Assembly (NCBI GenBank): GCA_009777575.1 | Contig: WRLO01000010.1 | Location: 1 to 61,496 of the forward strand | DNA from: Candidatus Cloacimonadota bacterium | GTDB lineage: Bacteria; Cloacimonadota; Cloacimonadia; Cloacimonadales; WRIO01 | Length of the DNA stretch: 61,496 bases | Direction: 5' to 3' | Part shown: positions 12,601-38,403 of the stretch, piece by piece | Layout: the number at the start of each line of letters is the position of its first letter | How positions within the stretch are numbered: position 1 is the first letter of the stretch | Position numbers and translations under genes: made by a program | Notes under the pieces: generated by a model | The model's database searches: none | What the model was told of the DNA's origin: nothing | What the model saw: only the letters and a program-made list of their open reading frames with translations

Positions 12601-12894
12601 ATGGATAATAAGATTCCAGAAAATTATCAAAAAGACATCGAAGTTGCGGTAGATTTTCTTAAAAGCGAGGGTTGCGAAGCAGTTTATCTATTTGGATCAT
12701 TATTAACTGGAAATATTCACGAAAGATCAGACATTGACTTAGGAATTAAAGGGTTACCTCCTAAAAAATTCTTTCGAGTATACGCAAAACTTGATGATAG
12801 AGTAATAAATGAGATTGATCTAGTTGATTTTGATGAACAGTCAAAATTTTATGATTTATTGTGTTCACTTGGAGAGGTAATAAAACTTGGATAA
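12601..12894 (+). CDS. Nucleotidyltransferase-domain (MNT-like) protein, apparently an orphan antitoxin-like component.
   Basis: VYLFGSLLTGNIHERSDIDLGI signature. AGGAG RBS 9 nt upstream of the ATG at 12601. The downstream HEPN-like partner is reduced to a 36-codon fragment (12887-12997). Confidence 0.55.
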   Translation: MDNKIPENYQKDIEVAVDFLKSEGCEAVYLFGSLLTGNIHERSDIDLGIKGLPPKKFFRVYAKLDDRVINEIDLVDFDEQSKFYDLLCSLGEVIKLG

Positions 12895-13078
12895 AACTAT
12901 AGGGAAAAAAATATTATTCGAAATCGAACAGCTTGATGAACTAATGGAAAAATCAAGACCTTTTTTATCTATCTGTCTCGAAAGAGAACCAAACTAAAGA
13001 GGGCAAGGTAGCTGTAGATGTTTTGTTTAAGGATACAAGCGTTTGGTTAAATCAAGAATATAAAATTAGGAGAATATA

Positions 13079-13708
13079 ATGCCAATAAACAAAAATAGTT
13101 TAATAAAATGTTTAATTGAAATGAAAAAGATTTATTTAAAAGACCCTATAGGTTCAGTTCGTAGCCAAGGTTTTATAAATTTCTTACACGAATATTGTAT
13201 TGATGAGCTACAAAAGGTAGGCATAAATGAAAATCATTTTCAGATACTAAAAGAAGCTACTTTATACGGTTCTCACAAATCCAAAGATGTAGATGTAGCA
13301 GTCATTGAAAACATAAACGGTCCACAAATCATTGTAGGTATCCGTAGCCAAATGTCTTCAATAAGTAAGAATATTTTAACATACTATGAAGAAATAATAG
13401 GAGATTGCATTTCCTTGCACGACAGGTTTCCCATGGCAGTTTTGTGTTATATCTATTTGCTACCTAAAAAGCCTATCAAAACAGGAGTAACTGAAAAGGT
13501 TAATCTTGAAAGAGCTGAAAAGCTATATATGAGAATAACTGGTAGAGAAGATTGGAGGTCTCCAAAGGATAAATATGAACATTTTGCTTTTTTGAAAGTA
13601 GATTTCGAAACAGACCCTCCCACCATTTTGGAAACTGACCCTTTATTGTGTATTGAGCATTTTTTTGACAAAATAGTTCATACTTACAATGAAAGGAAAC
13701 CATTATAA
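13079..13708 (+). CDS. Hypothetical protein. Candidate restriction endonuclease partner of the overlapping downstream MTase.
   Basis: 209-aa ORF with strong RBS. 20-bp overlap with the following gamma-class MTase. Possible PD-(D/E)xK-like DVDVAVIEN...GIRSQ segment (weak). Confidence 0.35.
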   Translation: MPINKNSLIKCLIEMKKIYLKDPIGSVRSQGFINFLHEYCIDELQKVGINENHFQILKEATLYGSHKSKDVDVAVIENINGPQIIVGIRSQMSSISKNILTYYEEIIGDCISLHDRFPMAVLCYIYLLPKKPIKTGVTEKVNLERAEKLYMRITGREDWRSPKDKYEHFAFLKVDFETDPPTILETDPLLCIEHFFDKIVHTYNERKPL

Positions 13709-15437
13709 GGAAAGAATTAGTATGTCTCCACATAAGCAAAAGCAAACAGGGTCATTTTATACTGAAAGTGTAGTAGTAGAAAGTATGATAAAATGGGCAA
13801 TCAGAGAAGGTAAAGAAAGTGTTTTAGAACCATCATTTGGAGAAGGCATTTTTATCGAAAAGTCTTTGAATCGCTTTAATGAATTAGGCAATGATAATCC
13901 TAAGCTTGTGGCTATAGAGATACAACCTGAAGTCGCAGATAGTTTCAGAAATAAAGAGAAATTGGAAACATCTTATGTTATAAACAGTGATTTTTTGGCT
14001 TTTCATTCTGATGAAAAATTTGATGTTGTGATAGGCAATCCGCCTTATGTCTGCCTTAAAAACATTTCATCGGAACAAAGATATACAGCTCAAAAAGTCA
14101 TTGAACAGTATTTAACTAGATGCCCAAACAATGGCAGCTTATGGTTTCCATTTGTTTTAAAATCTATTTCGTTATTAAAGCCAGAAGGTCGCATGGCTTT
14201 TGTCTTGCCTTTTGAGATAACTTATACACGATATGCTTATGCTTTGTGGGAGACCTTATCACAAAACTTTTCAAGCCTGTCTATCAGTCGTATATATGAA
14301 GACTTTTTCCCAAATGTCGATGTTGAAACTATTATTTTTTACGCAGCAGGTAAAAATGGGACAACCGACTTTATAGATTACAATATTTATAATGGGGTAG
14401 AGGATTTACAAAATAACAATATAAATAAAAAAGAAATTATCTGTTTGTCAGAAATATTCAACAATGAAAAGCCCTTTATATCTAGGACACTTGACAAAAC
14501 ACAACAGAAACAATTGATCAATATAAAAAACAAAGGTTTTTTGAAACCCATAATAGATAGCTGTAAATTTAAAATAGGTTATGTGTCTGCTGATAAAAAC
14601 TATTTTCATCCACAATCAAACATTATTCGTCATTTTTCAATTCCAGATGAAAATTTGATACCTACGATTTTAAATGCTAAAGAAATAAATGGAGGATCAA
14701 ACATAGGCTTGGAAGTACTTAAAGGAGATTGTTCTTCAAAGCTATACTGTCCTAAAAATATTTCAGAAGGTGATAGGTTATACTTAGAAAATGGAAAAAT
14801 GATGCAAGTTCATAAAAAATATAAATGCAAGAATCGCAAACCATGGTATATTACTCCCAACATTGAGTATCCAGACATGATATTAACCGTTTTTGGTGAA
14901 GTGCCTAAACTTATTGCCAATAAAGGAGGATATGCTGTTTCAAACAGTCTCTTGTGTGGCAGTTTGAAAGGCATTTCAAAAGAGCAATTTATCTGTAGAT
15001 GGTATAACAGCCTTACTTTATTATCTTTGGAGCTGAATATCCATTCTTTGGGTGGAGGAACTTTGGTTATCATACCGGGTGAAGCTGATAGGTTAAATAT
15101 CGTTGAAAATATTCCTCGCAGTATTGTTAGCTCAATATATGAGAAATTGAATGAAGAAACTCAAAAAAACGGAATCGAATACACTTATGCTTTAGGTGAT
15201 AAAATAGTCTTACAAGACATTTTTGGAGTTACTGATGAAGAATTGAAGTATATTCATGAATCAATAAAACTTCTTCGTAGCTGGAGAAACCCTATAAATA
15301 GAAGAAAAGATTGTTTAAAAAAGAATGTTTTTAACACAATAGAAAATAAAGATTTCTTTGCTCAGAAAAAGAAAAATGATATATTAAATAAACATCGTAT
15401 AACACACCTCTCCCAAATAGAGGTAAACAAATATTAG
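13689..15437 (+). CDS. Gamma-class N6-adenine DNA methyltransferase (type II, TaqI/Eco57I-like arrangement).
   Basis: GSFYTE (motif X-like), LEPSFGEGIF (motif I, FxGxG), VIGNPPYV (motif IV NPPY). Long C-terminal target-recognition region. Confidence 0.8.
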   Translation: MKGNHYKERISMSPHKQKQTGSFYTESVVVESMIKWAIREGKESVLEPSFGEGIFIEKSLNRFNELGNDNPKLVAIEIQPEVADSFRNKEKLETSYVINSDFLAFHSDEKFDVVIGNPPYVCLKNISSEQRYTAQKVIEQYLTRCPNNGSLWFPFVLKSISLLKPEGRMAFVLPFEITYTRYAYALWETLSQNFSSLSISRIYEDFFPNVDVETIIFYAAGKNGTTDFIDYNIYNGVEDLQNNNINKKEIICLSEIFNNEKPFISRTLDKTQQKQLINIKNKGFLKPIIDSCKFKIGYVSADKNYFHPQSNIIRHFSIPDENLIPTILNAKEINGGSNIGLEVLKGDCSSKLYCPKNISEGDRLYLENGKMMQVHKKYKCKNRKPWYITPNIEYPDMILTVFGEVPKLIANKGGYAVSNSLLCGSLKGISKEQFICRWYNSLTLLSLELNIHSLGGGTLVIIPGEADRLNIVENIPRSIVSSIYEKLNEETQKNGIEYTYALGDKIVLQDIFGVTDEELKYIHESIKLLRSWRNPINRRKDCLKKNVFNTIENKDFFAQKKKNDILNKHRITHLSQIEVNKY

Positions 15438-22858: not shown

Positions 22859-25534
22859 TCATACTATATTCTCCAAAGTTTTCTGGACAGTAGCATCAGA
22901 CACATTTATCTTCGTTCCATATCTAATTCTGCGAAGTAAATGCAATTCAACACAAGCAAGTAATTTCTGATCATAAACCTCATCGTTCAGCTCGTATTTA
23001 ATAAGCCTTTCTATTTGATTAAATACATTTTTAACGATGGAAGAATCTGCACTATCAGGTTTAAAATTCTTTACAAATATTCTTCTGGCTATTTCTCTAC
23101 CTAAAATTCTTTTATCGTATTCACATCCATCTACACAAAAGCGACAATAACCACATTCAGGATAAGGTCGCAGTTTATCTTTACGGTTATTCCAGTATGT
23201 AGAAAGTGACTTTATACTTTCATCAGAAAGGGTGATACTAATATTTTGAGCGAGTCTATAGTCTTCTGTTTTTATCTCTTCAGGTTCATCAAGCTTTCCA
23301 AAAAATAAAAAGGCTTCACCCGGTTTTAGTTTAGCAAGTCTTTTCTCTTGAATTTCCGTCATATTTGAACTATTGGCTATCATCTCTTTATCCGTGCCTT
23401 CTACAAGCCTAAAAGTGACTTTTATATCCGTCAATGACACAACATCAGTCGAGACTTTTCTCGGTGATTGGTCAGCAATGACTATACCTACTCCATAAGA
23501 GCGAATCTCAGCAAGCATGCGTTTTACTAGTCCTTGAGCTATTGCAGCTGGGTTTGCTTCACCTTCACCAGCATTGGAATCAGCATCAAGCAAAACATGG
23601 GCTTCTTCAAGTAAAATCACATTTTTAAGATTACCTTCACCAAGATAATTACTATTCACATAAGCCAAAATAGATAATAAAAGTAAAGATATTATCAATG
23701 CTTTTTGGTCGCTATTCTCAATAGCAGCAAGCTCAATAACAGTAGGTTTGGTTAATAAATCTTCTATCGGAATAGAATGATAATTATCAAACAAATTTAC
23801 AAGGCTTTGCAACCTTACTAACCCTGCTCTTCCAATATTTTTTGCATCTCCTGTATATCCTATTGCCTCAAAGGTTTCTTCAAAGCATTTAATGAAATCC
23901 GTGATATTAAAAACTTTTCCTTTATTATCGCTGGTATATGTGTCCAACCAACGAAAATCAGAATAACAATTATTGACAGTTTCTTCAAAGATCTTATCAA
24001 GAGGTGATGACATCGCCACACCAGCAGCAAAGGCTGTTTTTAATGTGTTTTTATAGGTCTCAAGTTTTACATTCTTGGGTGGCACAAAAGGATTAAACAC
24101 GAACGGGGATATAAAGTTTTTTCCCGGTGTAAACACCTGCAAGTCTGGAATACTCTGTACCAAAGCTCGATACTCATTTTTTGCTGGTTCAATCACGAGA
24201 AATGGTATTTTATGGTCTTTCCACAGCCTATCAAGCAAACTTACAGAAAATGTAGTTTTACCAGAGCCAGGCGTTCCCACCACAAGCATATGCTTAGTAA
24301 GGTCTTTCAAGGAAATGCCGATAGTATCACCTTGAGAAGATGATTTTAGCCTACCAAGCATGATGTCTCCACCACCAACCACATTATCAGCATAAGTCCG
24401 ACTTATTTTTCCTGATTCGTTCACTACCAGACCAGCATATACTGTGTCACTGCCAATAGGAAGCCTGAAAAATTCTGACGCTTCTTCAGCAGTGATGATA
24501 TAAGGCAATTTATAAAAATCATTTAAATTTTGCCCTACATTCCAAACAGATGGATTTCTATCGGTGGCAAGTAATAATTCGTGAACTGCCCAAGGAAGTG
24601 GGTAGAAGTTGTCGTCTTTCCTTACATCGTTTGGTTGCAATGATGTTATTCTTAGTTCATTACTATTGTTTAATTGAGCCAAAATTCTAGTGGCGATGGC
24701 ATTTGTTTCGCTTTGAGAACCATAAACAAGAATATTAAAGGCAAAAGCAGCTGTGTTCTTTTTCTGAGAATAATATTTATAAGTTTCTGCATGTTTTTCT
24801 GCGAGAGCAAAGCTGATATTACCAACACCATGTTCCATGACACCTTTGGATAGAGTTCCCAGCATTTGAGCATTTCTGTCTATAGCTGAGGCTTCTAGTG
24901 GTGAATAAATGACAGGCATCAACTGAAATGAAACAGCACAATTTGGAAAATCTATAAGCGAACTTACAATACGACTGAGGTCGTTTTCTGTCTCAGCAAT
25001 TTTACTAAAAGCAAAACAATATGGAATCATATTATTTTGTAAGTTCTCAAGATGTTCGCTTTTGACCACTGCTTTTATAGATTGATTATTTGTATTTTTT
25101 ATTTTCGCTATTAAATTATTGATGTCTGCATCTTTATATTCAAATTTACCAAAATCAAGGGTGGATTTGCATACCCTCAAAACAGAGGAAATAGTATTCT
25201 CTATTTCTGCATTATTATTCCCGATTGCTCTGATGATTATATGTAAAGTGATAGCGGCTTTATAGGGTTGGTTCTTCACTTCCTGAGTTGACCATAAGAT
25301 TTCTAGCGATATATCCTGGCTTCCCCCCACATAAATGTGGGGAGGACTTAATTTATAATTCTGATATACCTCCGACAGCAAGCGTGCCATATCCTGCTTG
25401 TACTCGGTATCAATGTTGTCAACTGTAGTAAATCTCTTTTGTAAGATAGACAAGTGCGGTATGCTGGTTATTTCGATTGCACAAAGACCTACATATTCAC
25501 CGTTTGATAATTCGACTATAGAAATATTATTCAT
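22859..25534 (-). CDS. HerA/FtsK-superfamily (DUF87-like) ATPase with a ~380-aa N-terminal extension and a C-terminal Cys cluster.
   Basis: Walker A MLVVGTPGSGKTT, HerA-like IEPAKNEYRAL (DPxGEY-like), Walker B LLEEAHVLL, VIADQSPRKVSTDV. C-terminal CGYCRFCVDGC. Confidence 0.75.
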   Translation of the reverse strand: MNNISIVELSNGEYVGLCAIEITSIPHLSILQKRFTTVDNIDTEYKQDMARLLSEVYQNYKLSPPHIYVGGSQDISLEILWSTQEVKNQPYKAAITLHIIIRAIGNNNAEIENTISSVLRVCKSTLDFGKFEYKDADINNLIAKIKNTNNQSIKAVVKSEHLENLQNNMIPYCFAFSKIAETENDLSRIVSSLIDFPNCAVSFQLMPVIYSPLEASAIDRNAQMLGTLSKGVMEHGVGNISFALAEKHAETYKYYSQKKNTAAFAFNILVYGSQSETNAIATRILAQLNNSNELRITSLQPNDVRKDDNFYPLPWAVHELLLATDRNPSVWNVGQNLNDFYKLPYIITAEEASEFFRLPIGSDTVYAGLVVNESGKISRTYADNVVGGGDIMLGRLKSSSQGDTIGISLKDLTKHMLVVGTPGSGKTTFSVSLLDRLWKDHKIPFLVIEPAKNEYRALVQSIPDLQVFTPGKNFISPFVFNPFVPPKNVKLETYKNTLKTAFAAGVAMSSPLDKIFEETVNNCYSDFRWLDTYTSDNKGKVFNITDFIKCFEETFEAIGYTGDAKNIGRAGLVRLQSLVNLFDNYHSIPIEDLLTKPTVIELAAIENSDQKALIISLLLLSILAYVNSNYLGEGNLKNVILLEEAHVLLDADSNAGEGEANPAAIAQGLVKRMLAEIRSYGVGIVIADQSPRKVSTDVVSLTDIKVTFRLVEGTDKEMIANSSNMTEIQEKRLAKLKPGEAFLFFGKLDEPEEIKTEDYRLAQNISITLSDESIKSLSTYWNNRKDKLRPYPECGYCRFCVDGCEYDKRILGREIARRIFVKNFKPDSADSSIVKNVFNQIERLIKYELNDEVYDQKLLACVELHLLRRIRYGTKINVSDATVQKTLENIV

Positions 25535-25943
25535 TTCCTACCTTCATAAGTAAATCCACAAATGATTCTGGTAAACTCACATTATTCATTTTTATTGCCT
25601 CTTTAAAAAGAGGAGCAATTTCCTCATCTTTAAAACCTGCAATGCCGCAACCTATGCGAGTTACATAAAAAAATAACTCTTGATGTTCTTTAGCAAAATC
25701 CAAAAAATCATTTACATAAGGAATTATACTATCTACTCCTCCTTGCATAGTGGGAATAGCATAACTCTGACCTTGTAATCCGACACCTTGACCATAAATC
25801 GCTCCGAATTTTTCATGAGCAGTTTGAGCCGCTCCACCAGCGTGTTGACCTGCAAGATTACTCCCAAAAACAAAAACTTCATTGGGAGCTAAGGAGCTTA
25901 TTTTTTCGGGTGTTATTAATTTTTTATTCGTTATTATTGTCAT
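25527..25943 (-). CDS. Small Gly-rich Rossmann-like protein translationally coupled to the HerA-like ATPase. Family uncertain (SLOG/LOG/DprA-like at best).
   Basis: 138 aa. VFVFGSNLAGQHAGGAAQTAHEKFGAIYGQGVGLQG. 8-bp overlap with the downstream ATPase gene. Confidence 0.45.
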   Translation of the reverse strand: MTIITNKKLITPEKISSLAPNEVFVFGSNLAGQHAGGAAQTAHEKFGAIYGQGVGLQGQSYAIPTMQGGVDSIIPYVNDFLDFAKEHQELFFYVTRIGCGIAGFKDEEIAPLFKEAIKMNNVSLPESFVDLLMKVGNE

Positions 25944-26558: not shown

Positions 26559-28259
26559 TTAAACTTTTGTTTCCCAATAACCTGTTTTGTCAGAGCCTTT
26601 ACGCTCTATAATATCTAATTTCTTCAATTGGTTAATGTTCTTCTTTACACCGGGTATAGACATACCTACCTCAGAAGCAAGTTGTTCAAGTGTAATTTCA
26701 GGATTTTTTATCAAGATATTAATAATTTTGTTTTGAGTGTCATTTACAGGATACTTTATAGGATACTTTATAGGATACTTTACAGGATACTTTTGAGTAT
26801 CCAATAAATGCTCATTGTTGCTTAATATCCACTGTCCATTTTTATTACCACCTTTACGCTCTATAATGCCTAATTTCTTCAATTGATTAATATTCTTCTT
26901 TATACCAGGTATAGATATCCCTATCTCAGTTGCAAGTTGTTCAATTGTAATTTCAGGATTTTTTGATATAGCATTTATTATTCCGTTTTTAGTTTCATTT
27001 ATAGGATACTTTATAGGATACTTTACAGGATACTTTTCATTCAAATCATTTGCACCGATAATTTCACCATTGTTTGCACTATAAATTTCACCAATATTTG
27101 CACCGATAATTTCACCATTGTTTGAAAGTGGAATACTATTAAAAGTAATATCTGTTCCAGATCTGTTTGATGAAAAAACAGGTAAAGGGTTATCATATTC
27201 TTTACAGGCAATCATGATTTTTTCTATTCCTCTTCCCCAAGCCTCAATCATACCAGAACGGAAAAAAACTTCAGCAATAAATGGATTTCTTTGAACAGAG
27301 CTATGAGGAGATAAAAGAGTATCCACTGTCCAGCTTTCGGGAAGCCCACCAGTATTAAAAACTATCACTTTATCAGGAAATACTTTAATCTGTATCGGCA
27401 CGCCTGTATTATAATCTTTATGCACAACAGCATTCAACAAAGCCTCTCGAAGGGCAGAACGAGCCACAATATAAGAATCTATTCGTTGTATCCCCTCATA
27501 TCGAATAATACCCTTTAAATATTTTGTATAGATTGTATCTAACGCTCTGTCGGGCATTGAGATTAGTGGACCTCTTATTTCATCTTGATAGATTAAATCT
27601 GCACCTGTTTGAAAAAAACCTATTTTTATATAGGCTCCTGTAACCCAATATTCTGGATTTTGGTGAAATAATAAAATTGCTGCTCTTTTTAAATAATTGT
27701 TTTCAGTTAGAGTCAAGTTTTGTATCAAAGTAGCATCATCAATATCTAAATCTTCCTTTGATAGGCGCTGACTTTCTAATGCTTTCTTTCTGAAATAACG
27801 CAAAGCATCCCTTTCTAAATCATCCACCTTTACATAAGGCATAGGAACACCATCCCATGTTTTACCTTGTTTGCGTAAAATAAACTCATCGAGAGCATTA
27901 CCTGTCAATTCCTGTGTTGTGCTACCAGAACGGATATAATATATGCCTCTATAGCTTATGGGAAAAGGATAAGCATTAACATTGATTGAAATATATTCTT
28001 TGCTATTTTTATTCTGGAGAGATATTTCTGCAATGATTGCCATAGCATTCTTTATCTTATTTGGTATATCCTCCATGAGCTTTTTTGATTCAGCCAATCC
28101 AATTATCATGCCTTCGTCATTTCTGACTATCTCTAAACAGCCACCAGACGCATTTGCAAAACCACAGATGGTTTTCAAATATTCATCATGCCAAGATTCT
28201 TTAAATTCAATGTTTTGATTTTCTATTACTTTTTCATCCATTTTCTTTAATGTTTCCAT
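26559..28259 (-). CDS. Schlafen/AlbA_2 (divergent AAA) domain protein with an HATPase_c_4-like region and two tandem C-terminal winged-helix modules. Putative transcriptional regulator.
   Basis: N-terminal NIEFKESWHDEYLKTICGFANASGGCLEIV (AlbA_2). Duplicated ...NPEIT(I/L)EQLA(T/S)E(I/V)G(I/M)SIPG(I/V)KKNINQLKKL(G/D)IIERKG... wHTH, each preceded by KYPVKYPIKYPI peptide repeats. Confidence 0.7.
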   Translation of the reverse strand: METLKKMDEKVIENQNIEFKESWHDEYLKTICGFANASGGCLEIVRNDEGMIIGLAESKKLMEDIPNKIKNAMAIIAEISLQNKNSKEYISINVNAYPFPISYRGIYYIRSGSTTQELTGNALDEFILRKQGKTWDGVPMPYVKVDDLERDALRYFRKKALESQRLSKEDLDIDDATLIQNLTLTENNYLKRAAILLFHQNPEYWVTGAYIKIGFFQTGADLIYQDEIRGPLISMPDRALDTIYTKYLKGIIRYEGIQRIDSYIVARSALREALLNAVVHKDYNTGVPIQIKVFPDKVIVFNTGGLPESWTVDTLLSPHSSVQRNPFIAEVFFRSGMIEAWGRGIEKIMIACKEYDNPLPVFSSNRSGTDITFNSIPLSNNGEIIGANIGEIYSANNGEIIGANDLNEKYPVKYPIKYPINETKNGIINAISKNPEITIEQLATEIGISIPGIKKNINQLKKLGIIERKGGNKNGQWILSNNEHLLDTQKYPVKYPIKYPIKYPVNDTQNKIINILIKNPEITLEQLASEVGMSIPGVKKNINQLKKLDIIERKGSDKTGYWETKV

Positions 28260-29982: not shown

Positions 29983-30270
29983 TTAAAAAGCCGAAGTATC
30001 ACCAGACACTCCTTCATAAATACCCGTGAGTGCCATTTTCCGTTCTTTAAATTGTTGTATCTTAGCTGGTAATTCACCTTCAAAACATCTCAAATCATTT
30101 TCTGCATTTGCTCTTTGATAATCATGTTGTTTTCCTTTTTTTACTACAGAAGGCAAAAACGCAATAAATAACATTGCACCTATAGCAAAAGCAATCACAT
30201 ATCCAATATCAACTTGACTGAAATAAGCTACAGCAGTCGCTATAAGAAAAACAATAAGTCCAAAAATCAT
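29983..30270 (-). CDS. Possible small membrane protein. The start is uncertain, and the longer ORF overlaps the C-terminus of the upstream gene.
   Basis: An internal Met (MIFGLIVFLIATAVAYF...) would give a non-overlapping ~95-aa two-TM protein. Weak RBS. Confidence 0.3.
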   Translation of the reverse strand: MIFGLIVFLIATAVAYFSQVDIGYVIAFAIGAMLFIAFLPSVVKKGKQHDYQRANAENDLRCFEGELPAKIQQFKERKMALTGIYEGVSGDTSAF

Positions 30271-30344
30271 CCAACCTGTTTTATTGGAAGGGATTGATTT
30301 TAAAATATTTTTTTTCAAATTATGGGTATTTTGACAATGTATAA

Positions 30345-32513
30345 TTATAAAATAGGTATTCCCCATTCAGGTTTATCATAAACTTTATAGTCAACTTTCT
30401 CAACTTTATCTGGATTTTCAGAACGCTCTTTTTCAGTTATATATTTCATAATAGAAGCAATATCTAGAAAATCGAGTTTTGAATTGTTTGCGTAGTTTGG
30501 GTCATCCCAATCCTTTTCAGAAATTAAAAAATCCTCAGAGCTTTCTACTATAAAAGGATGTAATTTTAAACCCAAATGTTTATGCCCATCTCTATGTTCT
30601 TCTTTATTATAAGCATAGTAATTCCATTGAGATTTCGTAGGTGCTATAAATCCTTTTGATCGCATGAATGCGTTCCAGCGACGATGTTCTAACCATGTCA
30701 AAGAGTTAGATACAGGAGTATTATTTTTTACTATTTCGAGATATTTCTCTATTTTTTCATCTGATAGTATTTTAAAATCATCATCTTCTCTATACAGCCC
30801 GATAGAATACATCTTATATTTAAAATGTAAATCACGAGCAATGCTAGACCACCATCCATATTCATCTTTGAGAAATTTGGTCATGTCTTTTTCGCTGTGA
30901 GTGTTACTTATATCATAAGCAAATTTATTTATGTCATTCATAAATATATTTCTGCAGCTATAGATATTTTTTAATGAGGCAAAAGCTCTACGAAATGATT
31001 TGTTACTTAGTAGTCCAATATTATTTAAAACTTCATTGGTTTTTGAATCAAAGACTGAATAAGCTATTATTGGTTTGTAAACACCAATGTCATTTAATAA
31101 TTTTTTTCTCACCATTCTATCAATATTTGATGCTGTTACTATATTTAGTTCGTCTGTGCCTAAAGCAACGATAAAATAATCTGATGATAATAAAGAGTTT
31201 TCATTTAAAACATTCATAAGTTTATCCGTTTTTACATCAACATCTTCAAAGTAGAATTTTGCATAAGGCTGTGAATATTTTTCCAGTCCGGGAAATATTC
31301 TTAAAAGCTCGTGATTATCGATTACGGTTTGCATTATTTCGGGATTTGTGAGATTTATCTTTGCTTCAAATATTTTTGAATTTTCGGTTATCACATTTAT
31401 TTTTAGCCTACAATTTAATAATTGTCCACACCAATAGGCATTTAAAAAAGCTTCTTGCCCTATTAACCCACCTCCGATGATAGTTATTTCTAACTCTTTT
31501 TCCTCGATGTAATTTGGAGGATATTTTGATAATAATGGCGTAAACAAAGGTATCTCATTGAACAGATTATAAACTATACTGGTAAATTCTTGAATTATCT
31601 TTATTACGATATTGGATTTATTTAACCATTCGTCTTCATAAAGTTTTTTCACAATAGAACTTGCCTCTGGATTTTGAGAAAAGACATAGATATTACAACC
31701 CTTTTTCCAGTTGTCTTTGTCCATAGTTACAAACGAAGTCAACGCATTGATGTTACATATATCTTCTTCATCGATGAGAATATAATGCAATTTTTTTGTT
31801 TTAGTAAAAGGGATTTTAAGCAGGTCATCTCTCACACAAACAGCACCTATTTCCTTTGCTCTTTGAAATAATTCTGACACAGTCTCGCTTTCATTGTCAA
31901 TATATGCATCAGTGAATACAATTAGAGGTAAATGTCTTGTATTTACTTTTCTTGCTTCTCTAATAATATCTTCAGCGAGCCAAATAGCCCGTTCATTCAG
32001 CTCTGAAAATACATATTTTTCCTGATATGGAGTGAAAAACAAGACAAGACCTGGAAATAACCTTGTTAGTATTCCCAATATAACAGCACCACCTGCAAAA
32101 GGAGCACATAAATTTAAAATTGCAGAGAATAAACCGTAAAATCCTGATAAAAACCGAGAATTAAATTCTTCTAAAAATAATTCTTTTCCTAAAAGAATCG
32201 TTTCTGCATATTCTTCATCCAAGCTGAATGTTTGCAATGTTCTGACTAGGCTATTGAACATTTTTTCAAACCAACTATAATTAACTGTTGTCATAGCATC
32301 AAGAGATGTTAAAAATATTGTGTATATACCGATTATGTAACGAAGGCAGAAGATACTAGCTAATAAACACAATATGGGAATAAATAGTTTTTCGTTTATA
32401 TTTTTACCCTTATGTTTTCTATTTTGTTTAAAAAAAGAAACAATAGCAAAAATAAAACCACATACAGACCCTACTAATAATAATAGGATAAATATTTTTT
32501 GGAAATAGGTCAT
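30345..32513 (-). CDS. Large membrane protein: N-terminal TM bundle, two Rossmann-like (TrkA_N-like?) regions and a possible C-terminal RyR-like domain.
   Basis: 4-5 TM helices in the first 150 aa. ITIIGGGLIGQEAF glycine-rich dinucleotide-binding-like motif. C-terminal ...TWLEHRRWNAFMRSKGF... is reminiscent of bacterial RyR domains (low confidence). Confidence 0.45.
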   Translation of the reverse strand: MTYFQKIFILLLLVGSVCGFIFAIVSFFKQNRKHKGKNINEKLFIPILCLLASIFCLRYIIGIYTIFLTSLDAMTTVNYSWFEKMFNSLVRTLQTFSLDEEYAETILLGKELFLEEFNSRFLSGFYGLFSAILNLCAPFAGGAVILGILTRLFPGLVLFFTPYQEKYVFSELNERAIWLAEDIIREARKVNTRHLPLIVFTDAYIDNESETVSELFQRAKEIGAVCVRDDLLKIPFTKTKKLHYILIDEEDICNINALTSFVTMDKDNWKKGCNIYVFSQNPEASSIVKKLYEDEWLNKSNIVIKIIQEFTSIVYNLFNEIPLFTPLLSKYPPNYIEEKELEITIIGGGLIGQEAFLNAYWCGQLLNCRLKINVITENSKIFEAKINLTNPEIMQTVIDNHELLRIFPGLEKYSQPYAKFYFEDVDVKTDKLMNVLNENSLLSSDYFIVALGTDELNIVTASNIDRMVRKKLLNDIGVYKPIIAYSVFDSKTNEVLNNIGLLSNKSFRRAFASLKNIYSCRNIFMNDINKFAYDISNTHSEKDMTKFLKDEYGWWSSIARDLHFKYKMYSIGLYREDDDFKILSDEKIEKYLEIVKNNTPVSNSLTWLEHRRWNAFMRSKGFIAPTKSQWNYYAYNKEEHRDGHKHLGLKLHPFIVESSEDFLISEKDWDDPNYANNSKLDFLDIASIMKYITEKERSENPDKVEKVDYKVYDKPEWGIPIL

Positions 32514-32667
32514 TTATTAACCCTCCTCTTTTTCATTAATCATTTTACTTATTTTGTAGACAAATTCTACACTTTTTACTGTATCTGAAGTATTTCTTTC
32601 TCATCAGAATTTTAAAGGATATTAAAATATCATAATTTCATTTTTTTTTATTAAACCTGTATATTTC

Positions 32668-33792
32668 TTATGTCATCACCAAAGCGCAGATAATAAATAA
32701 AATTATTAGAAATCCAAAATTATAAAAAGAGAACATCTTTAGATAATACCATGTTTTGCCAGGGTTATTTTTTGTATATTCTCTAAAGGTAATCAGGCTT
32801 GCTAATGAAGCTATCAAGGTTCCTACACCTCCAATATTTACAGCAACTAATAATTGCGGATAATTCTCGGTAAATCTTGATAACAAAATAGCACTGGGAA
32901 CATTGCTAATCAGCTGGCTTGAGAGTGTTCCCACTAAAAGAGTGTGGCTATTGACAAGAGAGCCTAAAAAATTACTGACAGCATCAATTCTCGACATATT
33001 TCCAGAAAAAACAAAGAAAGCAGCAAATGTAAATAACAAGGGGTAGTCTACTTGTTTCAATGCTTTTTTGTCGAGAAAGAGCAATGATATAGGAACTATG
33101 AACAACCCCCAAATATAAGGGATAAATCGAAAAACTATAAGGATTGAGAAGATGAACAACAATGTATAAATAATGGATTTCTTTATAGGCAATGTTTTAT
33201 TTTCATTGTTATTTAGTGTTAGCGGTTCAGGTTTGATAAATAAACAACAAACAGCAATTAGAACAATGGATATGATAAATGGTAAAAACATTATCTTCAT
33301 AAACTCAATATTCCCTATGTGAAAATATGTATAAAGATACAAATTCTGCGGATTACCAAAAGGAGTTAGCATCCCACCTAAATCAGCTGCTATACATTGC
33401 ATAATAAAAGTAAAAGCCATATAATGCTGTTTATTTGTAAATGTCAGCACAAAATATCCAAGAGGTAAAAAAGTTAATAATGCCATGTCATTGGCGATAA
33501 ACATGGAGGCAATTAGAGTTATAAACACTAGGGCAAGGATAGTGGAACGCAAATTTATGAATTTACAGACAATTTTTTTGGCTATAATGTCAAAAAAATG
33601 TATATTTCTAAAAGCATTCACAACTGATAAAACACAAAACAAACAAGTGAGGGTCTTAAAATCAAAGTAATCGAAATACTTCTTATCAAGAGGAACGATA
33701 AAACTTGTTATAAGTGCTGCAATAAATGCTATAACAAACACCATGTTTTTTTTTATCCATATCCAAAAGCTATTTTCTATCTTTTCACTCAT
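32668..33792 (-). CDS. Polytopic permease (ArsB/NhaD/CitMHS-like anion transporter superfamily, tentative).
   Basis: 374 aa with ~10 predicted TM helices. 3-bp gap to the downstream TIR-LRR gene. Confidence 0.45.
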   Translation of the reverse strand: MSEKIENSFWIWIKKNMVFVIAFIAALITSFIVPLDKKYFDYFDFKTLTCLFCVLSVVNAFRNIHFFDIIAKKIVCKFINLRSTILALVFITLIASMFIANDMALLTFLPLGYFVLTFTNKQHYMAFTFIMQCIAADLGGMLTPFGNPQNLYLYTYFHIGNIEFMKIMFLPFIISIVLIAVCCLFIKPEPLTLNNNENKTLPIKKSIIYTLLFIFSILIVFRFIPYIWGLFIVPISLLFLDKKALKQVDYPLLFTFAAFFVFSGNMSRIDAVSNFLGSLVNSHTLLVGTLSSQLISNVPSAILLSRFTENYPQLLVAVNIGGVGTLIASLASLITFREYTKNNPGKTWYYLKMFSFYNFGFLIILFIICALVMT

Positions 33793-33794
33793 AC

Positions 33795-35387
33795 TTAAGA
33801 TTTTTTATTCCTCACATATTTTATTTGATTCTTTTCACAATATGATGCAGCTATCTCATTGTCATTACAAATAACAGTAATCTTTTTACAACCTCTGAAA
33901 ATTTCCCATCCAAAGTCAACAACACTTGGAGGGATTGAAATTTCCTTTAAGTTTATACAGCCTCTAAACACACTATCATCAATTTTGGTAACTCCATCGG
34001 GTATTTCAATTTTTTCGATTGATGTACAATTTGAAAAAGCACCTATATTAATTGTGTTTAAACTATCATGCAGTATGATTTTTTTGAGGCGTATAGCACC
34101 ATAAAAAGCATATCCATTGATATTTGTTACGCTGTCTGGAACTTCATATTCAACGAAGTCTTTATTTGATGGATAGATCAATAATGTTGATTTATTTTTA
34201 TTAAAAAGAATCCCGTCAGTTGACCTAAAGTACCTATTTTTAGGGTCAACGATGATATTATGTAGTTTACTACATCCTTTAAAAGGACCTATCCCAATTT
34301 CATTAACTTTTGAAGGAATATAAATTGTTTCTAATGAAGAACAATTTAAGAAAACATAATGAGTAATTTTTGTCAACTCCTCTGATAAAACAATGTCTTC
34401 AAGATTTATACATCCTGCAAAAGCTCTATTATTGAGCATTATTACATTCGGTGACAAGGTGATTCTTTTTAGGCTAATACAGTCTGATAATGCGTTTTCA
34501 CCCAATACAGCTAAATCTTCTGGAAGTTTTATATTGTCCAAACTACAGCAACTGTTAAAGACTCCGTTATTTATTTCGATTAAGTCGTCAGGCAGTGATA
34601 TGTTTTTTAATTGAGGGCAGTTTTCAAAAGCTCTTTCAGCTATATCAATTTCTTTTTCAATAACCAAATCAGTCAAATCGATACAATCTCTAAATGCGCT
34701 ATCTCCGATATAAAGGACGGTCTGAGGGATAAAAAGTTTTTTTAACCTACTGCAACCTCGAAAAGCTTCGTTTCCTATATATGTAACTGTTTTAGAAAAT
34801 ACGATAGATTCGAGCTTACGACAATGTTTAAATGCTGAATCAGCAATAGTTTTGATACTTTCATCTAATATGATTTCCTTACTTCCGTCTTTGCATTTTG
34901 TCAAAACACCATCTTTAACAATTAATTGTCTCATTGTTTCAATAGGCAGACTGGCTACAAGATTATCAATATATTTATCGTTTCCATCGGTTGAATAACC
35001 CTTTAAATGTTGCAAGTTTTCGAGTAACAATTTGAAACTATTGGGTATTTCTGCATCACTTTCAAGATATATTGGATAAATTCTTTTGTCGTATTTAAAT
35101 GCTGTGATAATCTCCATTCCCACATACTTTGACTGCATAGATGCAGTTGAGATAAATAGGATGAATGCTCCGCATTTTTCTATTCTTGTTCTGAGTTCTT
35201 CTCTAAAGTCAGAGCCTATCTCCATCGTATCATCATACCATATTCTGAATCTTTCACTATCGAGTTTATTCAAAATCTTATACACAATATCTGTATTCGT
35301 ATGAGAATAACTAACAAATAGAAACGGATTTGAGCCGTTGTAAACTTCAAAGTTTATATTCGGTTTTGTAAAATTGTTTTCCGACAT
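33795..35387 (-). CDS. TIR-domain protein fused to BspA-type leucine-rich repeats (LRR_5).
   Basis: N-terminal FLFVSYSHTNTD...RIWYDD...ILFIS...SKYVGMEI (TIR_2-like, including a candidate catalytic Glu). C-terminal repeats of ...IGDSAF..C..L..I.IP..V..IG..AF. Confidence 0.75.
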   Translation of the reverse strand: MSENNFTKPNINFEVYNGSNPFLFVSYSHTNTDIVYKILNKLDSERFRIWYDDTMEIGSDFREELRTRIEKCGAFILFISTASMQSKYVGMEIITAFKYDKRIYPIYLESDAEIPNSFKLLLENLQHLKGYSTDGNDKYIDNLVASLPIETMRQLIVKDGVLTKCKDGSKEIILDESIKTIADSAFKHCRKLESIVFSKTVTYIGNEAFRGCSRLKKLFIPQTVLYIGDSAFRDCIDLTDLVIEKEIDIAERAFENCPQLKNISLPDDLIEINNGVFNSCCSLDNIKLPEDLAVLGENALSDCISLKRITLSPNVIMLNNRAFAGCINLEDIVLSEELTKITHYVFLNCSSLETIYIPSKVNEIGIGPFKGCSKLHNIIVDPKNRYFRSTDGILFNKNKSTLLIYPSNKDFVEYEVPDSVTNINGYAFYGAIRLKKIILHDSLNTINIGAFSNCTSIEKIEIPDGVTKIDDSVFRGCINLKEISIPPSVVDFGWEIFRGCKKITVICNDNEIAASYCEKNQIKYVRNKKS

Positions 35388-35399
35388 ATTTCTAACTCC

Positions 35400-37862
35400 T
35401 TACACTTTTTTTTCTTTGCAGATTGTAAAAAATTCCTTATTCTCACCGATAGATTCTGAATCCATTGTTTCCCAAAGATCAAACGCTTGTTTAAAATATT
35501 CTATGGCTTGTTCTTGCTCTTGCATCAGTTTAGATAGAAGCCCCATATCATAGAATAATTTTGCGAGATCGTTTTTATATTTAATGACATCTGGAGTTTG
35601 GTTAAGTAATGTTTCTCGAAGTGATAAGGCTTTATGGCAGTATTCTAAGGCTTCAGGGAAGAGGCTGGTCTCTTTTAACAATATTGCGTAATTTGCATAG
35701 ATGTTGGATAAAAATTCCCGATATGCATCAGGATTTGTTGAAAACAATCGCTCAGTGATATTTATAGCTTTGTGGTAATATTTTTCTGTTTCTGGATAGT
35801 TTTTTAGAGCATAAAGAGATAAACTTATATAATAATATTGAAACCCCAGATTATGCTCAATAGTAAAATATACCTCTTTATCCAAGCTCTCAAGAATCTC
35901 AATTGCCATTATAAGATTATCAATAGATTCTGTATATTGATGTGTTTTTGACAGCATCTTTCCTAAATCACCGTATGCAGTTGCTAATCCTACTATATAT
36001 GTATCAAAGCTAAGATTGATTAATCGCTTACCTATTTTGATTGCACATCTAACCTGTTCTATACCTTCTGTATATTGTTTTAAAAGATAATATAGATGAC
36101 TTGATTCTCTATGAAGATCCATCAAATAAGGTTCAACAAAATTTGGATTAATATTTGCGCCTTTTTTTAGAAGTATTAAAGCTAGTTTGAAATATTCTTC
36201 AGATTCTACGAGTTGATATTTATTTAGATATAAACTTCCAAGTAAGCTATAACATTGTCCTAAGTCAATCTGGTAGAGGTATGTATCTTCATAATCTAAT
36301 GTTGAATAAATATTTTTTGCCAACATCATGAAGTGTTCTGCATCACTATATTGAGCAGTCTTGTAATTAGTAGGGTGACTGTATATCATGCCAATATTAC
36401 AATATGTGTCTGCTAACAATCTTAATCGATTAAATGATTTTTCGACTATTTCATCTTGCATTAAGGAAACATTTTTTAAAAATATATCCTTTGCGGCATC
36501 CATCTTTCCTTGAAAGAAATTAATCTCACCATAATTGTTAAGCATCTTACATTGTTTATAGTTATATATTTTTTGATTACTTTGATTTATTTTATCGCTA
36601 ATATCAATACTCTTTTTAAAAAAATATTCTGCATCATCAAATTTAAATTTATACCCTGAAATTAGACCTATATTTTGAAGGATTTCTGCAATTCTATATA
36701 GACATTCTTCTGTTTTGTCATAGTAAATCTCTGCCCATTTTAGGTAATCTTGTGCATGTTTTAAGGCTATATCAAAATATCTTTGCTCTATTAAATACTC
36801 CACAAACTTCGTCTGTGACTCTCTCTCCAGTCCAGCTTCTTTTTCGAGCTTAATAGCTTTTTCAAAGGAGTGTTCTATCTCTGTAAACCGATTCTCGTTT
36901 TGTGTATCAATTATAAGGACATCTACCCTTTGCATCCAGTCACCAACGAGGGCTTGGATTTTCTTTTTATGTTCTTCGAGGATTTCGAGTTCTCTTTTCT
37001 CTTCAAGTTCGAGTTCGTCAACTGAGAGTATTTGTTTTGCTCCCTCTATATCACCTTCTTCGAGGCATTGTCTGGCGGATATTTGTCTTGGTGAGATATA
37101 TCCTGTGCCGGATTTTTCCAAAAAAGAGGTTTCCATTTTGATGATGTCGAGTTGGAGGTTGTGAATGGCTTCGCTAGCTTTATTTTTTCTCCCGCTGATT
37201 CCTAAATATTCTGCTAGGAGGTCATCATCGTCAGGGTTTTTCTTGATGAGTGCTCTATGTGCCATGAATTCTTTTTCGATTTCTAAAAATTCGTTTTTTA
37301 ATAAGCTTAAATTTTTATTATTAAAGATGATAGGTATGTTCTCGAGGGTCATTAGTTCTTGTCCATCTAGTAGTAGTGATGTTTCGTTTACATCGACTTT
37401 TATATGTTCTAAACCGAGTGTTTTTAATTGCAAAATTAAATTAAGTTTCAGCGTGTCGAGATGGGTGTAACTGCTGTCGTAGTGACCGAGTTCATTTCTT
37501 AGTTTTTCCATGAAGTTGATAACTGTTTTATTTTGTTTTTTGTTATCAAGTTTTTTATAATAAGTGCAGATTTTAGGTGTTTTTTTATTGATGAAAGCAT
37601 TATAAGCTGCTTCAAATTCAGCTTTTGCTTTTTCTTGAGGTTCGTCATGGAAGATGATATAAAATAGTTCGCTATTTGCAGCTGCTTTGAGGTCTTCGGC
37701 GGGGTCATTTTCACCGCTTATATTCAGATAAAAGTATATTCCGAGCCTTTGATAATTATCGTTTAGGCTGTCAATAAAGGCACCGAATTCCTGAATGTCT
37801 TTTTCTAATTTGTCTAAAGATGAAGTGAGAAAAAGTTTAATTTTTTTCATTTGTTCTTTCAT
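35400..37862 (-). CDS. DUF4062-like N-terminal domain followed by a coiled-coil and an extensive TPR-repeat region.
   Basis: N-terminal KIKLFLTSSLDKLEKD... resembles DUF4062 and is paralogous to the next gene. The C-terminal 450 aa is packed with TPR-like A/Y/F-rich helical repeats. No P-loop. Confidence 0.55.
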   Translation of the reverse strand: MKEQMKKIKLFLTSSLDKLEKDIQEFGAFIDSLNDNYQRLGIYFYLNISGENDPAEDLKAAANSELFYIIFHDEPQEKAKAEFEAAYNAFINKKTPKICTYYKKLDNKKQNKTVINFMEKLRNELGHYDSSYTHLDTLKLNLILQLKTLGLEHIKVDVNETSLLLDGQELMTLENIPIIFNNKNLSLLKNEFLEIEKEFMAHRALIKKNPDDDDLLAEYLGISGRKNKASEAIHNLQLDIIKMETSFLEKSGTGYISPRQISARQCLEEGDIEGAKQILSVDELELEEKRELEILEEHKKKIQALVGDWMQRVDVLIIDTQNENRFTEIEHSFEKAIKLEKEAGLERESQTKFVEYLIEQRYFDIALKHAQDYLKWAEIYYDKTEECLYRIAEILQNIGLISGYKFKFDDAEYFFKKSIDISDKINQSNQKIYNYKQCKMLNNYGEINFFQGKMDAAKDIFLKNVSLMQDEIVEKSFNRLRLLADTYCNIGMIYSHPTNYKTAQYSDAEHFMMLAKNIYSTLDYEDTYLYQIDLGQCYSLLGSLYLNKYQLVESEEYFKLALILLKKGANINPNFVEPYLMDLHRESSHLYYLLKQYTEGIEQVRCAIKIGKRLINLSFDTYIVGLATAYGDLGKMLSKTHQYTESIDNLIMAIEILESLDKEVYFTIEHNLGFQYYYISLSLYALKNYPETEKYYHKAINITERLFSTNPDAYREFLSNIYANYAILLKETSLFPEALEYCHKALSLRETLLNQTPDVIKYKNDLAKLFYDMGLLSKLMQEQEQAIEYFKQAFDLWETMDSESIGENKEFFTICKEKKV

Positions 37863-38403
37863 TTCCTAATGTTATAATTTTATTAAGCCTTTGTTGTATT
37901 TCATTTGTAAGTTCATTTTTCAAGATTTCGAGTATCACGCTTAGTAATATTTCTTTGAAATCAGTTATTTCTGTGAACTTTAACTTTAGGGTATCTGAGG
38001 GGATGTTTTCAAAAAAAACATTGATAGTACTCTCGCTATCATCACAAATCTTGAAACCAGCTATAATTATAGGGAAACCTTCAACTTGCTGTTTTTTTAG
38101 ATTTTTAGCATATTCATATTCTTCAAAGGTATATTTTCCCATTTTTTTACCTATTAAGAGTAAAAAAATATTACAATCATCTATTTCTGTTAAAAATTGT
38201 TCTTGTTTTCTTCCATTTGTAATAGCTTTATCAGAAAATTCACAGATAAACATATTGATCATGATGTTATGGTCTATAACAACATTTTTTATTTGTCGGA
38301 TAAAATTTTTTAGTGATTGACGCTCATCTGCAAACTCCTCTATTGAGGAAGCGAGGAAGATTTTTATGTTTATCTTCGGTTTCGTGAAAATGTTTGCTGA
38401 CAT
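37837..38403 (-). CDS. Stand-alone DUF4062-like domain protein.
   Basis: KIFLASSIEEFADERQSLKNFI...CNIFLLLIGKKMGKYTFEEYEYA fits the DUF4062 pattern (FISSxFxDLxxER...CDIxxxIIGxRYG). 26-bp overlap with the downstream gene. Confidence 0.55.
   Translation of the reverse strand: MSANIFTKPKINIKIFLASSIEEFADERQSLKNFIRQIKNVVIDHNIMINMFICEFSDKAITNGRKQEQFLTEIDDCNIFLLLIGKKMGKYTFEEYEYAKNLKKQQVEGFPIIIAGFKICDDSESTINVFFENIPSDTLKLKFTEITDFKEILLSVILEILKNELTNEIQQRLNKIITLGNERTNEKN

Follow-up and report, generated by a model that had tools for sequence, protein, structure and literature searches.

Organization of the locus

The window analyzed here is the whole of a 61,496-nucleotide (nt) contig from a Candidatus Cloacimonetes metagenome-assembled genome (MAG). 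Its minus strand carries a run of closely spaced genes for a small DUF4062 protein (P1), a DUF4062-TPR protein (P2), a TIR protein with BspA-type leucine-rich repeats (P3), a permease, and a membrane protein of 722 amino acids (aa), X722:

37837 to 38403, minus strand: P1, 188 aa (open reading frame, ORF; Pfam DUF4062)
35400 to 37862, minus strand: P2, 820 aa (ORF; Pfam TPR families)
33795 to 35387, minus strand: P3, 530 aa (ORF; Pfam TIR_2 and LRR_5)
32668 to 33792, minus strand: CitMHS/ArsB-type permease, 374 aa (CitMHS, E = 1.1e-28)
30345 to 32513, minus strand: X722, 722-aa membrane protein (AlphaFold2 (AF2) fold, conserved motifs)

P1, P2, and P3 had been grouped in an original prediction as one cluster of three co-directional, tightly packed defense genes without an NTPase, with the permease and the 722-aa gene as downstream neighbors. 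The ORFs, their common strand, and the two downstream genes are borne out, and none of the three proteins matches an NTPase family in Pfam; by hydropathy, none of them has a hydrophobic or membrane segment. The predicted spacing needs partial correction: the 26-nt overlap of P1 and P2 holds when counted from the first ATG of P2, but the gap between P2 and P3 is 12 nt, not 13, and the P3 stop lies 2 nt, not 3, from the permease start. If P2 begins at M5, its overlap with P1 shrinks to 14 nt. This start (37850) corresponds to the 816-aa protein called by NCBI and agrees with all homologs, and the true start codon of P2 is likely to be M5. The region from 29983 to 38403 is probably co-transcribed; promoter predictions across the locus were no better than those for shuffled sequence.

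P1/P2 pairs and TIR-LRR genes are conserved separately

P2-type loci were collected in part by a profile search of genome contigs with an alignment of P2-type N-termini (A2), which gave 9 loci, and the neighborhoods were reanalyzed with local hidden Markov models (HMMs). For TIR-LRR loci, a metagenome search with the single P3 sequence, for which an alignment would have been the better query, gave only 3 loci. No TIR-LRR_5 gene is present in the 8 other P2-type loci, and no P1/P2 pair in the 8 other TIR-LRR loci. Because the two never co-occur in the other loci, we conclude with high confidence that the genes of the original prediction are not one cluster but belong to two separately conserved modules, P1 with P2 (module A) and P3 with the permease and X722 (module B). 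The latter two genes, taken at first for mere neighbors, are instead the conserved partners of P3, found in 9 of 9 and 6 of 9 loci, respectively.

A single NTPase-less defense system of three genes, with TPR and LRR sensors and DUF4062 and TIR effectors, is improbable by comparison. In its favor are the tight operon, with its overlap and its 12-nt and 2-nt gaps, and a repeat that links the 5' regions of P1 (38368-38417) and P3 (35352-35401), which are identical on the minus strand at 40 of 50 nt (80%). The local alignment score of this repeat is 55, against 18.7 +/- 2.8 for shuffles. It spans the ribosome-binding site AAGGA through codon 12, the encoded peptides being MSANIFTKPKIN and MSENNFTKPNIN, and a 40-nt repeat pattern is found in the window at these two sites only, with 0 expected. 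The N-terminal extension of window P1 is absent from other P1-like proteins; the 5' extension of P1 may be a copy from P3, or the two genes may share translational control.

TIR proteins of other kinds also stand beside P1/P2 pairs in L002 (TIR-NB-ARC, TIR_2) and L022 (TIR-NB-ARC-TPR), and other DUF4062 proteins lie near TIR-LRR genes in L009 and L011-14, which suggests a looser functional kinship of the two modules. Against a single system stand, besides the mutual absence in the 8 plus 8 other loci, the P1/P2 pair that occurs alone in L004/5 and the TIR-LRR/permease pairs of L007, L024, L039, and L043, where no DUF4062 gene was detected.

P1 carries a complete DUF4062 motif set

The DUF4062 domain has been described as a TIR-like NADase of anti-phage defense that has a catalytic Glu and acts through abortive infection (bioRxiv 10.64898/2026.05.01.722283; 10.64898/2026.06.25.731849). 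We took the definitions of the catalytic E-Y motif and of the N-terminal aromatic motif from these preprints, which concern the systems Swarozyc and Evangelion.

In P1, the stand-alone DUF4062 domain of the original prediction is confirmed by Pfam (PF13271, residues 14-93, 37.9 bits against a cutoff of 24.7, E = 2.1e-9). The protein has the full set of motifs, FLASS..R, CE, RKQ, and G..YT.EEY, and the invariant residues of the P1-like family include C54, E55, Q67, G89, T92, E94, and E95. Within YTFEEYEYA, E94 and E95 are invariant in 8 P1-like proteins, and the aromatic motif IFLASS with F16 is also present. The putative catalytic Glu of P1 is E95, followed by Y96, as judged from these alignments. 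A PDB sequence search with the P1 profile returned nothing useful.

P2 begins with a degenerate DUF4062 domain

P2 can be divided into three parts:

37413 to 37850, minus strand: degenerate DUF4062 domain, residues 5-150 (profile alignment, AF2 fold)
36858 to 37412, minus strand: beta-hairpin and long-helix module, residues 151-335 (invariant columns; AF2 helices 177-248 and 258-334)
35400 to 36857, minus strand: TPR array, residues 336-820 and stop codon (Pfam TPR families)

Pfam recognizes the TPR array (TPR_12, E = 1.1e-19; TPR_10, E = 2.1e-18; TPR_1, E = 5.5e-12) and no other family, and the N-terminus gives no DUF4062 match at E <= 0.1. BLASTP of P1 against P2 is likewise not significant. 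Both tools are thus blind to the DUF4062 domain of P2, and profile methods are needed. With hhalign, the P1-like family (alignment A7, 8 proteins) and the P2-type N-termini (A2) align at a probability of 98.8% (E = 1.4e-16), pairing P1 residues 8-173 with P2 residues 3-170 and E95-Y96 of P1 with E82-F83 of P2; a local HMM of the P2-family domain matches P1 at about 1e-17. On this profile evidence, the N-terminus of P2 is, as originally predicted, a DUF4062 domain, homologous to P1, with P1 a paralog of its first ~170 residues.

The P2 domain lacks a loop of ~8-10 residues (CE..RKQ) together with the ER, CE, and YT motifs. In alignment A1, distant members of the P2 family have FLASS..ER, CE, RKQEEYN, and G.YT.EEF, as P1 does, whereas window P2 and its closer relatives are without the loop and most DUF4062 motifs. 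Pfam DUF4062 accordingly matches 8 of 28 motif-keeping relatives sampled and 1 of 28 degenerate ones, while TPR families match 27 of 28 and 25 of 28.

The DUF4062 domain and the helical module, with its motifs GHY..D..KLN, NIP...NN, and L..G, form the N-terminal 330-aa unit of the family. Searched exhaustively with HMMER, residues 1-330 of P2 yielded 904 cluster representatives at E <= 1e-3, 524 of them at E <= 1e-10; the unit almost always starts at the first residue of the protein and is followed by 300-1000 more residues. An AF2 model of P2 residues 1-335 (predicted local distance difference test (pLDDT) score 75.7) combines long helices and beta-hairpins with a beta/alpha domain of five strands. 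The PDB structures that it matches have flavodoxin-like folds and include the TIR domains of RPS4 and RRS1 and an NDT-family N-glycosidase, all weak (E between 2e-3 and 2e-2). The TPR array is presumed to be the sensor or ligand-binding part.

Three motif-keeping relatives of P2 match the N-terminal domain of eukaryotic Nephrocystin-3 (PF25022). Many members of the P2 family match TPR_NPHP3, and two bear an extra TIR_2 domain.

Full-motif small proteins pair with degenerate large ones

A P1-like gene stands directly beside a P2-like gene in 7 of the 9 distinct P2-type loci, in both gene orders and often with an overlap:

Window, Cloacimonetes: P1-like gene adjoins P2-like gene
L002, Treponema: P1-like gene adjoins P2-like gene
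L003/L019, Spirochaetia: P1-like gene adjoins P2-like gene
L004/L005, sporulation genes nearby: P1/P2 pair alone amid housekeeping genes
L006/L015, Clostridia: two tandem large genes, the small one after them
L018, Tenericutes: P1-like gene adjoins P2-like gene
L022, Clostridia: P1-like gene adjoins P2-like gene

The paired loci span Cloacimonetes, Spirochaetes, Clostridia, and Tenericutes, and the small partner measures 148-188 aa. In a joint alignment of the loci, all large proteins (11 of 11) are degenerate and all small ones (8 of 8) have the full motif set; every large protein in the loci examined belongs to the degenerate branch of the P2 family. That branch is one side of a nearly even division among 147 family representatives, 66 with both the CE..RKQ loop and [YF]T..E[FY] and 70 with neither. 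The catalytic-Glu motif E[FY]xxA is found in 67 of 68 representatives with the loop as against 39 of 79 without it, and the catalytic Glu is invariant in alignment A8, not in A9. Full-motif small proteins, degenerate large ones, and a decaying Glu motif are what would be expected if catalysis had passed to the small partner, and we therefore slightly favor a split enzyme formed of P1 and P2.

The alternative, which we consider rather improbable, is a mere clustering of two independent DUF4062 systems, each a single gene of the Evangelion/Swarozyc type, with P2 itself an active NADase that has a TPR sensor. The published DUF4062 systems are single genes, and the motif-keeping relatives of P2 hold the whole architecture in one protein. 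Two further observations count against a split enzyme: P2 keeps E82-F83 at the aligned position of the catalytic Glu and may, by that criterion, still be active on its own, and in two P2-type loci (L016 and L021, short contigs of one Bacilli MAG) the large gene has no adjacent P1-like gene. What argues for the split enzyme and against independence is the adjacency in 7 of 9 loci across these four groups, in both orders and often overlapping, the strict complementarity of small full-motif and paired degenerate large proteins, and the loss of the Glu motif from half of the degenerate branch. The N-terminus of a motif-keeping P2 relative, used as a query, found one unrelated plasmid DUF4062 gene and nothing in viral contigs.

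P3 is a predicted cytoplasmic TIR-LRR protein with a permease partner

The predicted fusion of a TIR domain to BspA-type LRRs is upheld by HMM searches: P3 has a TIR_2 domain at ~21-135 (Pfam residues 24-130, 64 bits, E = 2.3e-17) and BspA-type LRR_5 repeats at ~169-505 (E = 4.2e-77). It also scores above the cutoff for ThsB_TIR (23.3 against 21.2 bits). In the TIR motif SKY.GME, E92 is invariant (alignment A3, mean column identity 69%) and would, on this alignment, be the catalytic Glu. The database search with P3 gave 4181 matches. The 120 matches listed are 520-541 aa long, with 48-59% identity at 95-100% query coverage, and those named are mostly from Clostridia MAGs and annotated merely as leucine-rich repeat proteins.

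Mean pairwise identity in the P3 family is 70% for the TIR domain and 62% for the LRR. The LRR, which the original prediction took for a sensor, thus comes close to the TIR domain in its conservation, which does not resemble a rapidly evolving phage-protein sensor.

Another reading, to which we attach hardly any probability and which we rejected, would make P3 an ordinary LRR protein of the BspA-like surface or adhesin kind, with no part in defense. Its basis is the LRR_5 match itself, a partial match to the NCBIfam adhesin model HupY/LrrG, the NCBI name "leucine-rich repeat protein," and the closest solved relatives (4fs7 and 4gt6), which are cell-surface LRR proteins. The NCBIfam score is 80.8 against a cutoff of 1250, though, and P3 has no signal peptide, membrane segment, or anchor. 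Its N-terminus is a TIR_2 domain with the invariant E92, and its fixed gene neighbors are intracellular or membrane-bound. By these features, P3 is predicted to be a cytoplasmic TIR-LRR protein. Assignment of P3 to the STAND/NLR type was rejected as well, as it was for P1 and P2, since a central NTPase domain is absent.

A CitMHS/ArsB-type permease gene directly adjoins the TIR-LRR gene in all 9 distinct loci. It lies downstream in 5 (the window, L007/8, L009/10, L011-14, and L024) and upstream, in the form of a distant permease subfamily, in 4 (L025, L026, L039-42, and L043). The window permease scores 100.8 bits with CitMHS, against a cutoff of 31.9, and shows nine hydropathy peaks, some of them overlapping; those of the other loci match CitMHS and/or ArsB, within the ion-transporter superfamily.

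The company of the pair varies. In L039 (4943-11593), its companions are a TIR_2 protein, HAD_SAK_2, a metallophosphatase, and a protein with TIR and MORN repeats (TIR-MORN). In L011-L014 (in L011, 1946-17590), it comes after genes for an FtsK/SpoIIIE-type ATPase, small proteins of 95-97 aa, a 308-aa Ion_trans channel, and a protein of 183 aa, and before those for a 1464-aa DUF4062-AAA_16-HTH_NWD1-beta-propeller protein (TEP1/NWD1-like) and an X722 homolog. Near the TIR-LRR gene of L009 are genes for a TIR-TPR protein, a kinase, a TIR-Sel1 protein, a second TIR-LRR protein, and a DUF4062 protein of >1098 aa.

X722 combines a membrane domain with tandem RCK-like domains

An X722 homolog lies in the same cluster in 6 of the 9 TIR-LRR loci (the window, L007, L009, L011, L024, and L043). 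The AF2 model of X722 (37 sequences; pLDDT 86.9, predicted template modeling score 0.80) places membrane helices at 3-33, 44-68, and 102-159, and these are separated by an amphipathic helix with the conserved sequence LQTFSLDE.Y. Two Rossmann-like domains follow, one at ~166-330 and one at ~339-530 with GGGLIG (345-350), a GxGxxG-type motif. The C-terminal helical domain contains EHRRW (609-613) and KLHP (649-652), and the motif residues H610, W613, G621, and H652 are conserved in the family. In the predicted model, X722 is a membrane domain joined to two tandem RCK/TrkA-like domains, and we regard it as a candidate membrane effector or receptor. A PDB sequence search with the family profile gave no match.

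The C-terminal motifs resemble those of ryanodine receptor (RyR) domains. The X722 family search gave 99 matches, only two of which match Pfam RyR; the 2 of 37 relatives that match PF02026 do so each via an additional domain. A firm RyR assignment for the X722 C-terminus was rejected, the evidence being at the level of motifs alone. Relatives with an extra genuine RyR domain occur in L006, P0320, and P0361.

Genuine RyR domains, X722 homologs, and TIR and DUF4062 genes recur in shared operons. In L022 (2205-11543), one strand carries genes for an Abi_2-RyR fusion (RyR, E = 8e-34), an X722-like protein, a TIR-NB-ARC-TPR protein (790 aa), a P1-like protein, and a P2-like protein; the RyR domain of this locus is host-encoded and fused to an abortive-infection domain. 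The order in L006 is an X722-like gene with RyR, Abi_2, two P2-like genes, and a P1-like gene. L045 (3311-22272) is a TIR-rich island whose four TIR proteins (ThsB_TIR, TIR-NACHT, Tubulin_2-TIR, and TIR-kinase-FHA) share the locus with two X722 paralogs, an AAA/FtsH-like protein, a 93-aa RyR protein, a NUDIX protein, and an HD protein.

Defense or transport as the role of module B

We propose a tentative model in which the TIR enzyme of P3 signals to a membrane effector, and we rate its chances somewhat below even. The most serious of the competing explanations gives module B a non-immune role: the TIR-LRR protein would be a conserved regulatory subunit of a permease for ions or metabolites, X722 would be a transporter or channel under RCK control, the two would couple NAD+ or ADP-ribose levels to membrane transport in anaerobes, and the proximity of the DUF4062 pair would be incidental. 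We consider this role unlikely.

Several observations weigh against a defense function or against a membrane effector. P3 is highly and uniformly conserved along its length (69% mean column identity, with 62% pairwise identity in the LRR), which fits a non-immune role too, and its family has more than 4000 members of near-constant length. The TIR-LRR/permease pair lies amid housekeeping genes in L039 (rpmH-rnpA-yidC region) and L043. A search for the P3 family in viral and plasmid records returned LRR-only proteins, with no member of the family among phage or plasmid records. PADLOC has no model for module B and gave no match for P1, P2, the permease, or X722, and its matches for P3 were ThsB-like and weak (E = 1e-5). 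L025 and L039 gave no detectable X722 homolog, and L026 is too short for a call.

Other points of the same bearing concern the proteins themselves. RCK domains are classical NAD/ADP-regulated transport modules. Window X722 has no Pfam match at all, RyR included, and no recognizable K+ selectivity filter in its membrane part; in one comparison, its C-terminus aligned with five genuine RyR domains at an hhalign probability of 12.5% (E = 0.002) over the motif region. The role that we give to the permease is a guess.

On the other side, many loci of the module (the window, L009, L011-14, and L039) are crowded with genes of the TIR, STAND, and DUF4062 kinds, and X722 homologs also accompany Abi_2, NACHT, and NUDIX genes. 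To our knowledge, the bacterial TIR domains with a catalytic Glu characterized to date act in immunity, which counts against the non-immune role. The defense-type reading of the original prediction is plausible in view of the DUF4062 NADase preprints and of the defense-type genes elsewhere in the window.

Surrounding genes of the window

Two further genes lie immediately downstream of X722:

29983 to 30366, minus strand: 127-aa protein with two membrane segments (ORF, hydropathy), overlapping the 3' end of X722 including the stop codon
29270-29818, minus strand: 182-aa protein with an N-terminal Cys-rich, zinc-ribbon-like stretch and weak TPR matches

Neither protein has a homolog in the other loci examined. 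A terminator-like hairpin at 30012-29993 lies within the 127-aa gene, with which the transcription unit may end; the membership of this gene in the system is uncertain.

Farther downstream on the minus strand are a 566-aa Schlafen/AlbA_2-HATPase_c_4 protein (26559-28259), with two C-terminal helix-turn-helix modules and KYPVKYPIKYPI-type peptide repeats before each, and, at 22859-25943, an 891-aa HerA/DUF87-type ATPase (HerA and mad8 matches in PADLOC) together with the overlapping 138-aa gene that precedes it. The plus strand carries an EcoRI-type adenine methylase (E = 2.6e-137) and an Eco57I-type methylase at 9957-15437, which suggest restriction-modification genes.

Upstream of P1, a long co-directional operon (38577-61306, minus strand) includes a second TIR protein, of 375 aa. 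Its other products are an M48 peptidase-TerB protein, a 1159-aa Tubulin_2 protein, unannotated proteins of 647, 551, and 1781 aa, a GDSL lipase, a PAD_porph deiminase, a 693-aa protein, a ParA-like ATPase (weak PDC-M28B match), a 256-aa protein, and a protein with two AdoMet_dc-like halves. The Tubulin_2-TIR fusion near the X722 homologs of L045 hints at a link to this operon. The methylases, the HerA-like ATPase, the Schlafen/AlbA_2 protein, and the upstream TIR operon are together consistent with a defense island.

Discussion

Taking these observations together, we infer that the region from 29983 to 38403 is a composite, NAD-based anti-phage defense locus of two modules, an interpretation whose chances we put at about even. 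Both modules can be described as variants of known systems, the DUF4062 NADases and the Thoeris-type TIR systems, in architectures undescribed in the literature searched.

Module A is closest to Swarozyc and Evangelion. In the Swarozyc protein KpSwz, E97 and an auxiliary domain are required, NAD+ falls on infection, a phage portal protein activates the system, and the outcome is abortive infection; Evangelion Eva01 is a single-gene system in which an auxiliary region has co-evolved with the DUF4062 core (F11, E87-Y88) (both from bioRxiv 10.64898/2026.05.01.722283 and 10.64898/2026.06.25.731849). "TPR" is absent from the main text of these Swarozyc and Evangelion preprints, and "two-gene" from the text on Evangelion. 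As judged by motif descriptions, P1 and the ancestral P2 N-terminus share with these systems the DUF4062/TIR-like domain family, the E-[YF] catalytic motif, and the N-terminal aromatic motif, and in both cases a helical stalk or auxiliary region comes after the core. For module A as well, activation by oligomerization and loss of NAD+ would be expected. Unlike those systems, the locus described here has two genes, one for a small full-motif protein and one for a large protein with a degenerate core, a helical module of ~200 residues, and TPRs.

The DUF4062 domain has reportedly been renamed NIR in a third preprint.

A division of labor of this kind has a possible parallel in the paired plant receptors RPS4 and RRS1 (PDB 4c6t), in which a sensor with an inactive TIR-like domain would correspond to P2 and its partner with an active one to P1, joined by TIR-type contacts. 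When the model of the P2 N-terminus is compared with the PDB, the TIR domains of these receptors rank near the top, although the matches are weak (E about 3e-3). Module A differs in having no NB-ARC NTPase and in its DUF4062 domain, which is not a canonical TIR domain, and the analogy would be one of mechanism, not of descent. Nor do these proteins resemble STAND/NLR-like systems such as Avs and bNACHT: a central NTPase is missing, and the 330-aa N-terminal module of P2 consists of DUF4062 and helices.

By this model (see also above for the rival in which P1 and P2 act independently), the TPR array of P2 would bind a phage- or infection-derived ligand. The helical stalk and the pseudo-enzyme DUF4062 domain would then oligomerize, recruit P1, and nucleate its assembly, and the assembled P1 would be the active TIR-like NADase, whose hydrolysis of NAD+ would stop the infected cell.

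For module B, the nearest relatives are the Thoeris systems, a survey of which distinguishes types I-XI and 29 putative types, with membrane-spanning effectors common and an ion-channel effector in type X (bioRxiv 10.64898/2025.12.03.692087). As in Thoeris, a TIR protein with a putative catalytic Glu adjoins candidate effectors, and the ThsB_TIR score of P3 is above the cutoff. Module B is unlike Thoeris in that the TIR domain is fused to a strongly conserved LRR_5 array, that its partners are a permease of the secondary-transporter type and a tandem-RCK membrane protein, and that it is without a known effector domain (SIR2-SLOG, Macro, caspase-like, DUF2270, and others). RyR, LRR, CitMHS, and TrkA do not appear in the survey text or in the supplements covered (10.64898/2025.12.03.692087), and a search of the literature for TIR with LRR_5, CitMHS with TIR, and RyR with TIR in conflict systems found nothing relevant.

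X722 differs in several respects from RCK-gated channels and transport regulators (TrkA, KtrA, GsuK, MthK, BK/Slo1, and CASTOR). Sequence similarity to them is undetectable, the K+ filter signature is replaced by the LQTFSLDE.Y helix, an RyR-like C-terminus is added, and the gene context is one of TIR and DUF4062 genes, not of ion homeostasis.

A 2026 preprint (PMC13232231), which describes phage proteins only, shows that RyR-domain proteins of phages either cleave 2'cADPR and 3'cADPR, isomers of cyclic ADP-ribose (cADPR) made by TIR enzymes, or bind them with nanomolar affinity. Like these RyDEP/phage RyR proteins (R12, PF02026), related operons contain genuine RyR domains (Abi_2-RyR in L022, and L006 and L045), and the X722 C-terminus shares the pattern H-x-x-W ... 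G[WF] ... K.HP, which includes the positions that correspond by motif to H75, W78, and H100 of RyDEP. Unlike them, the domains at issue here are encoded by the host, not part of phage counter-defense, and joined to putative effectors, either Abi_2 or an RCK-bearing membrane domain, and window X722 falls below significance against RyR.

In the proposed signaling route, the TIR domain of P3, through E92, would cleave NAD+ to ADP-ribose or an ADP-ribose-derived signal. The conserved LRR would most likely hold the TIR domain on the permease and not read variable phage proteins. X722 would sense the nucleotide via its Rossmann/RCK and RyR-like domains and alter membrane permeability. Since X722 homologs lie near both TIR and DUF4062 genes, both NADases of this locus might feed one membrane effector.

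A wider generalization is speculative and, taken as a whole, has a low probability. Host RyR-type and RCK domains would be receptors for the ADP-ribose-type nucleotides made by TIR and DUF4062 NADases, and X722-type proteins would be nucleotide-gated channels, a prokaryotic counterpart and possible forerunner of cADPR-to-ryanodine-receptor signaling. The TIR-LRR/permease pair, which thousands of anaerobic bacteria carry, would be an unrecognized class of TIR module in which the conserved LRR docks the enzyme on a transporter.

DUF4062 was reported as an immune NADase in 2026, as single-gene systems only. If true, the split form would mean that TIR-like enzymes can be controlled via pseudo-enzyme partners, like paired plant receptors. 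The TIR-LRR/permease pairing marks a very large unannotated family of gut and digester anaerobes, and a TIR enzyme tied to a transporter is found in none of the Thoeris types named in the survey (10.64898/2025.12.03.692087). Recent preprints raise the question of whether RyR-type domains read cADPR-like signals beyond phage counter-defense, and the RyR domains and RCK channel-like protein of these TIR/DUF4062 operons provide a concrete set of proteins with which to address it.

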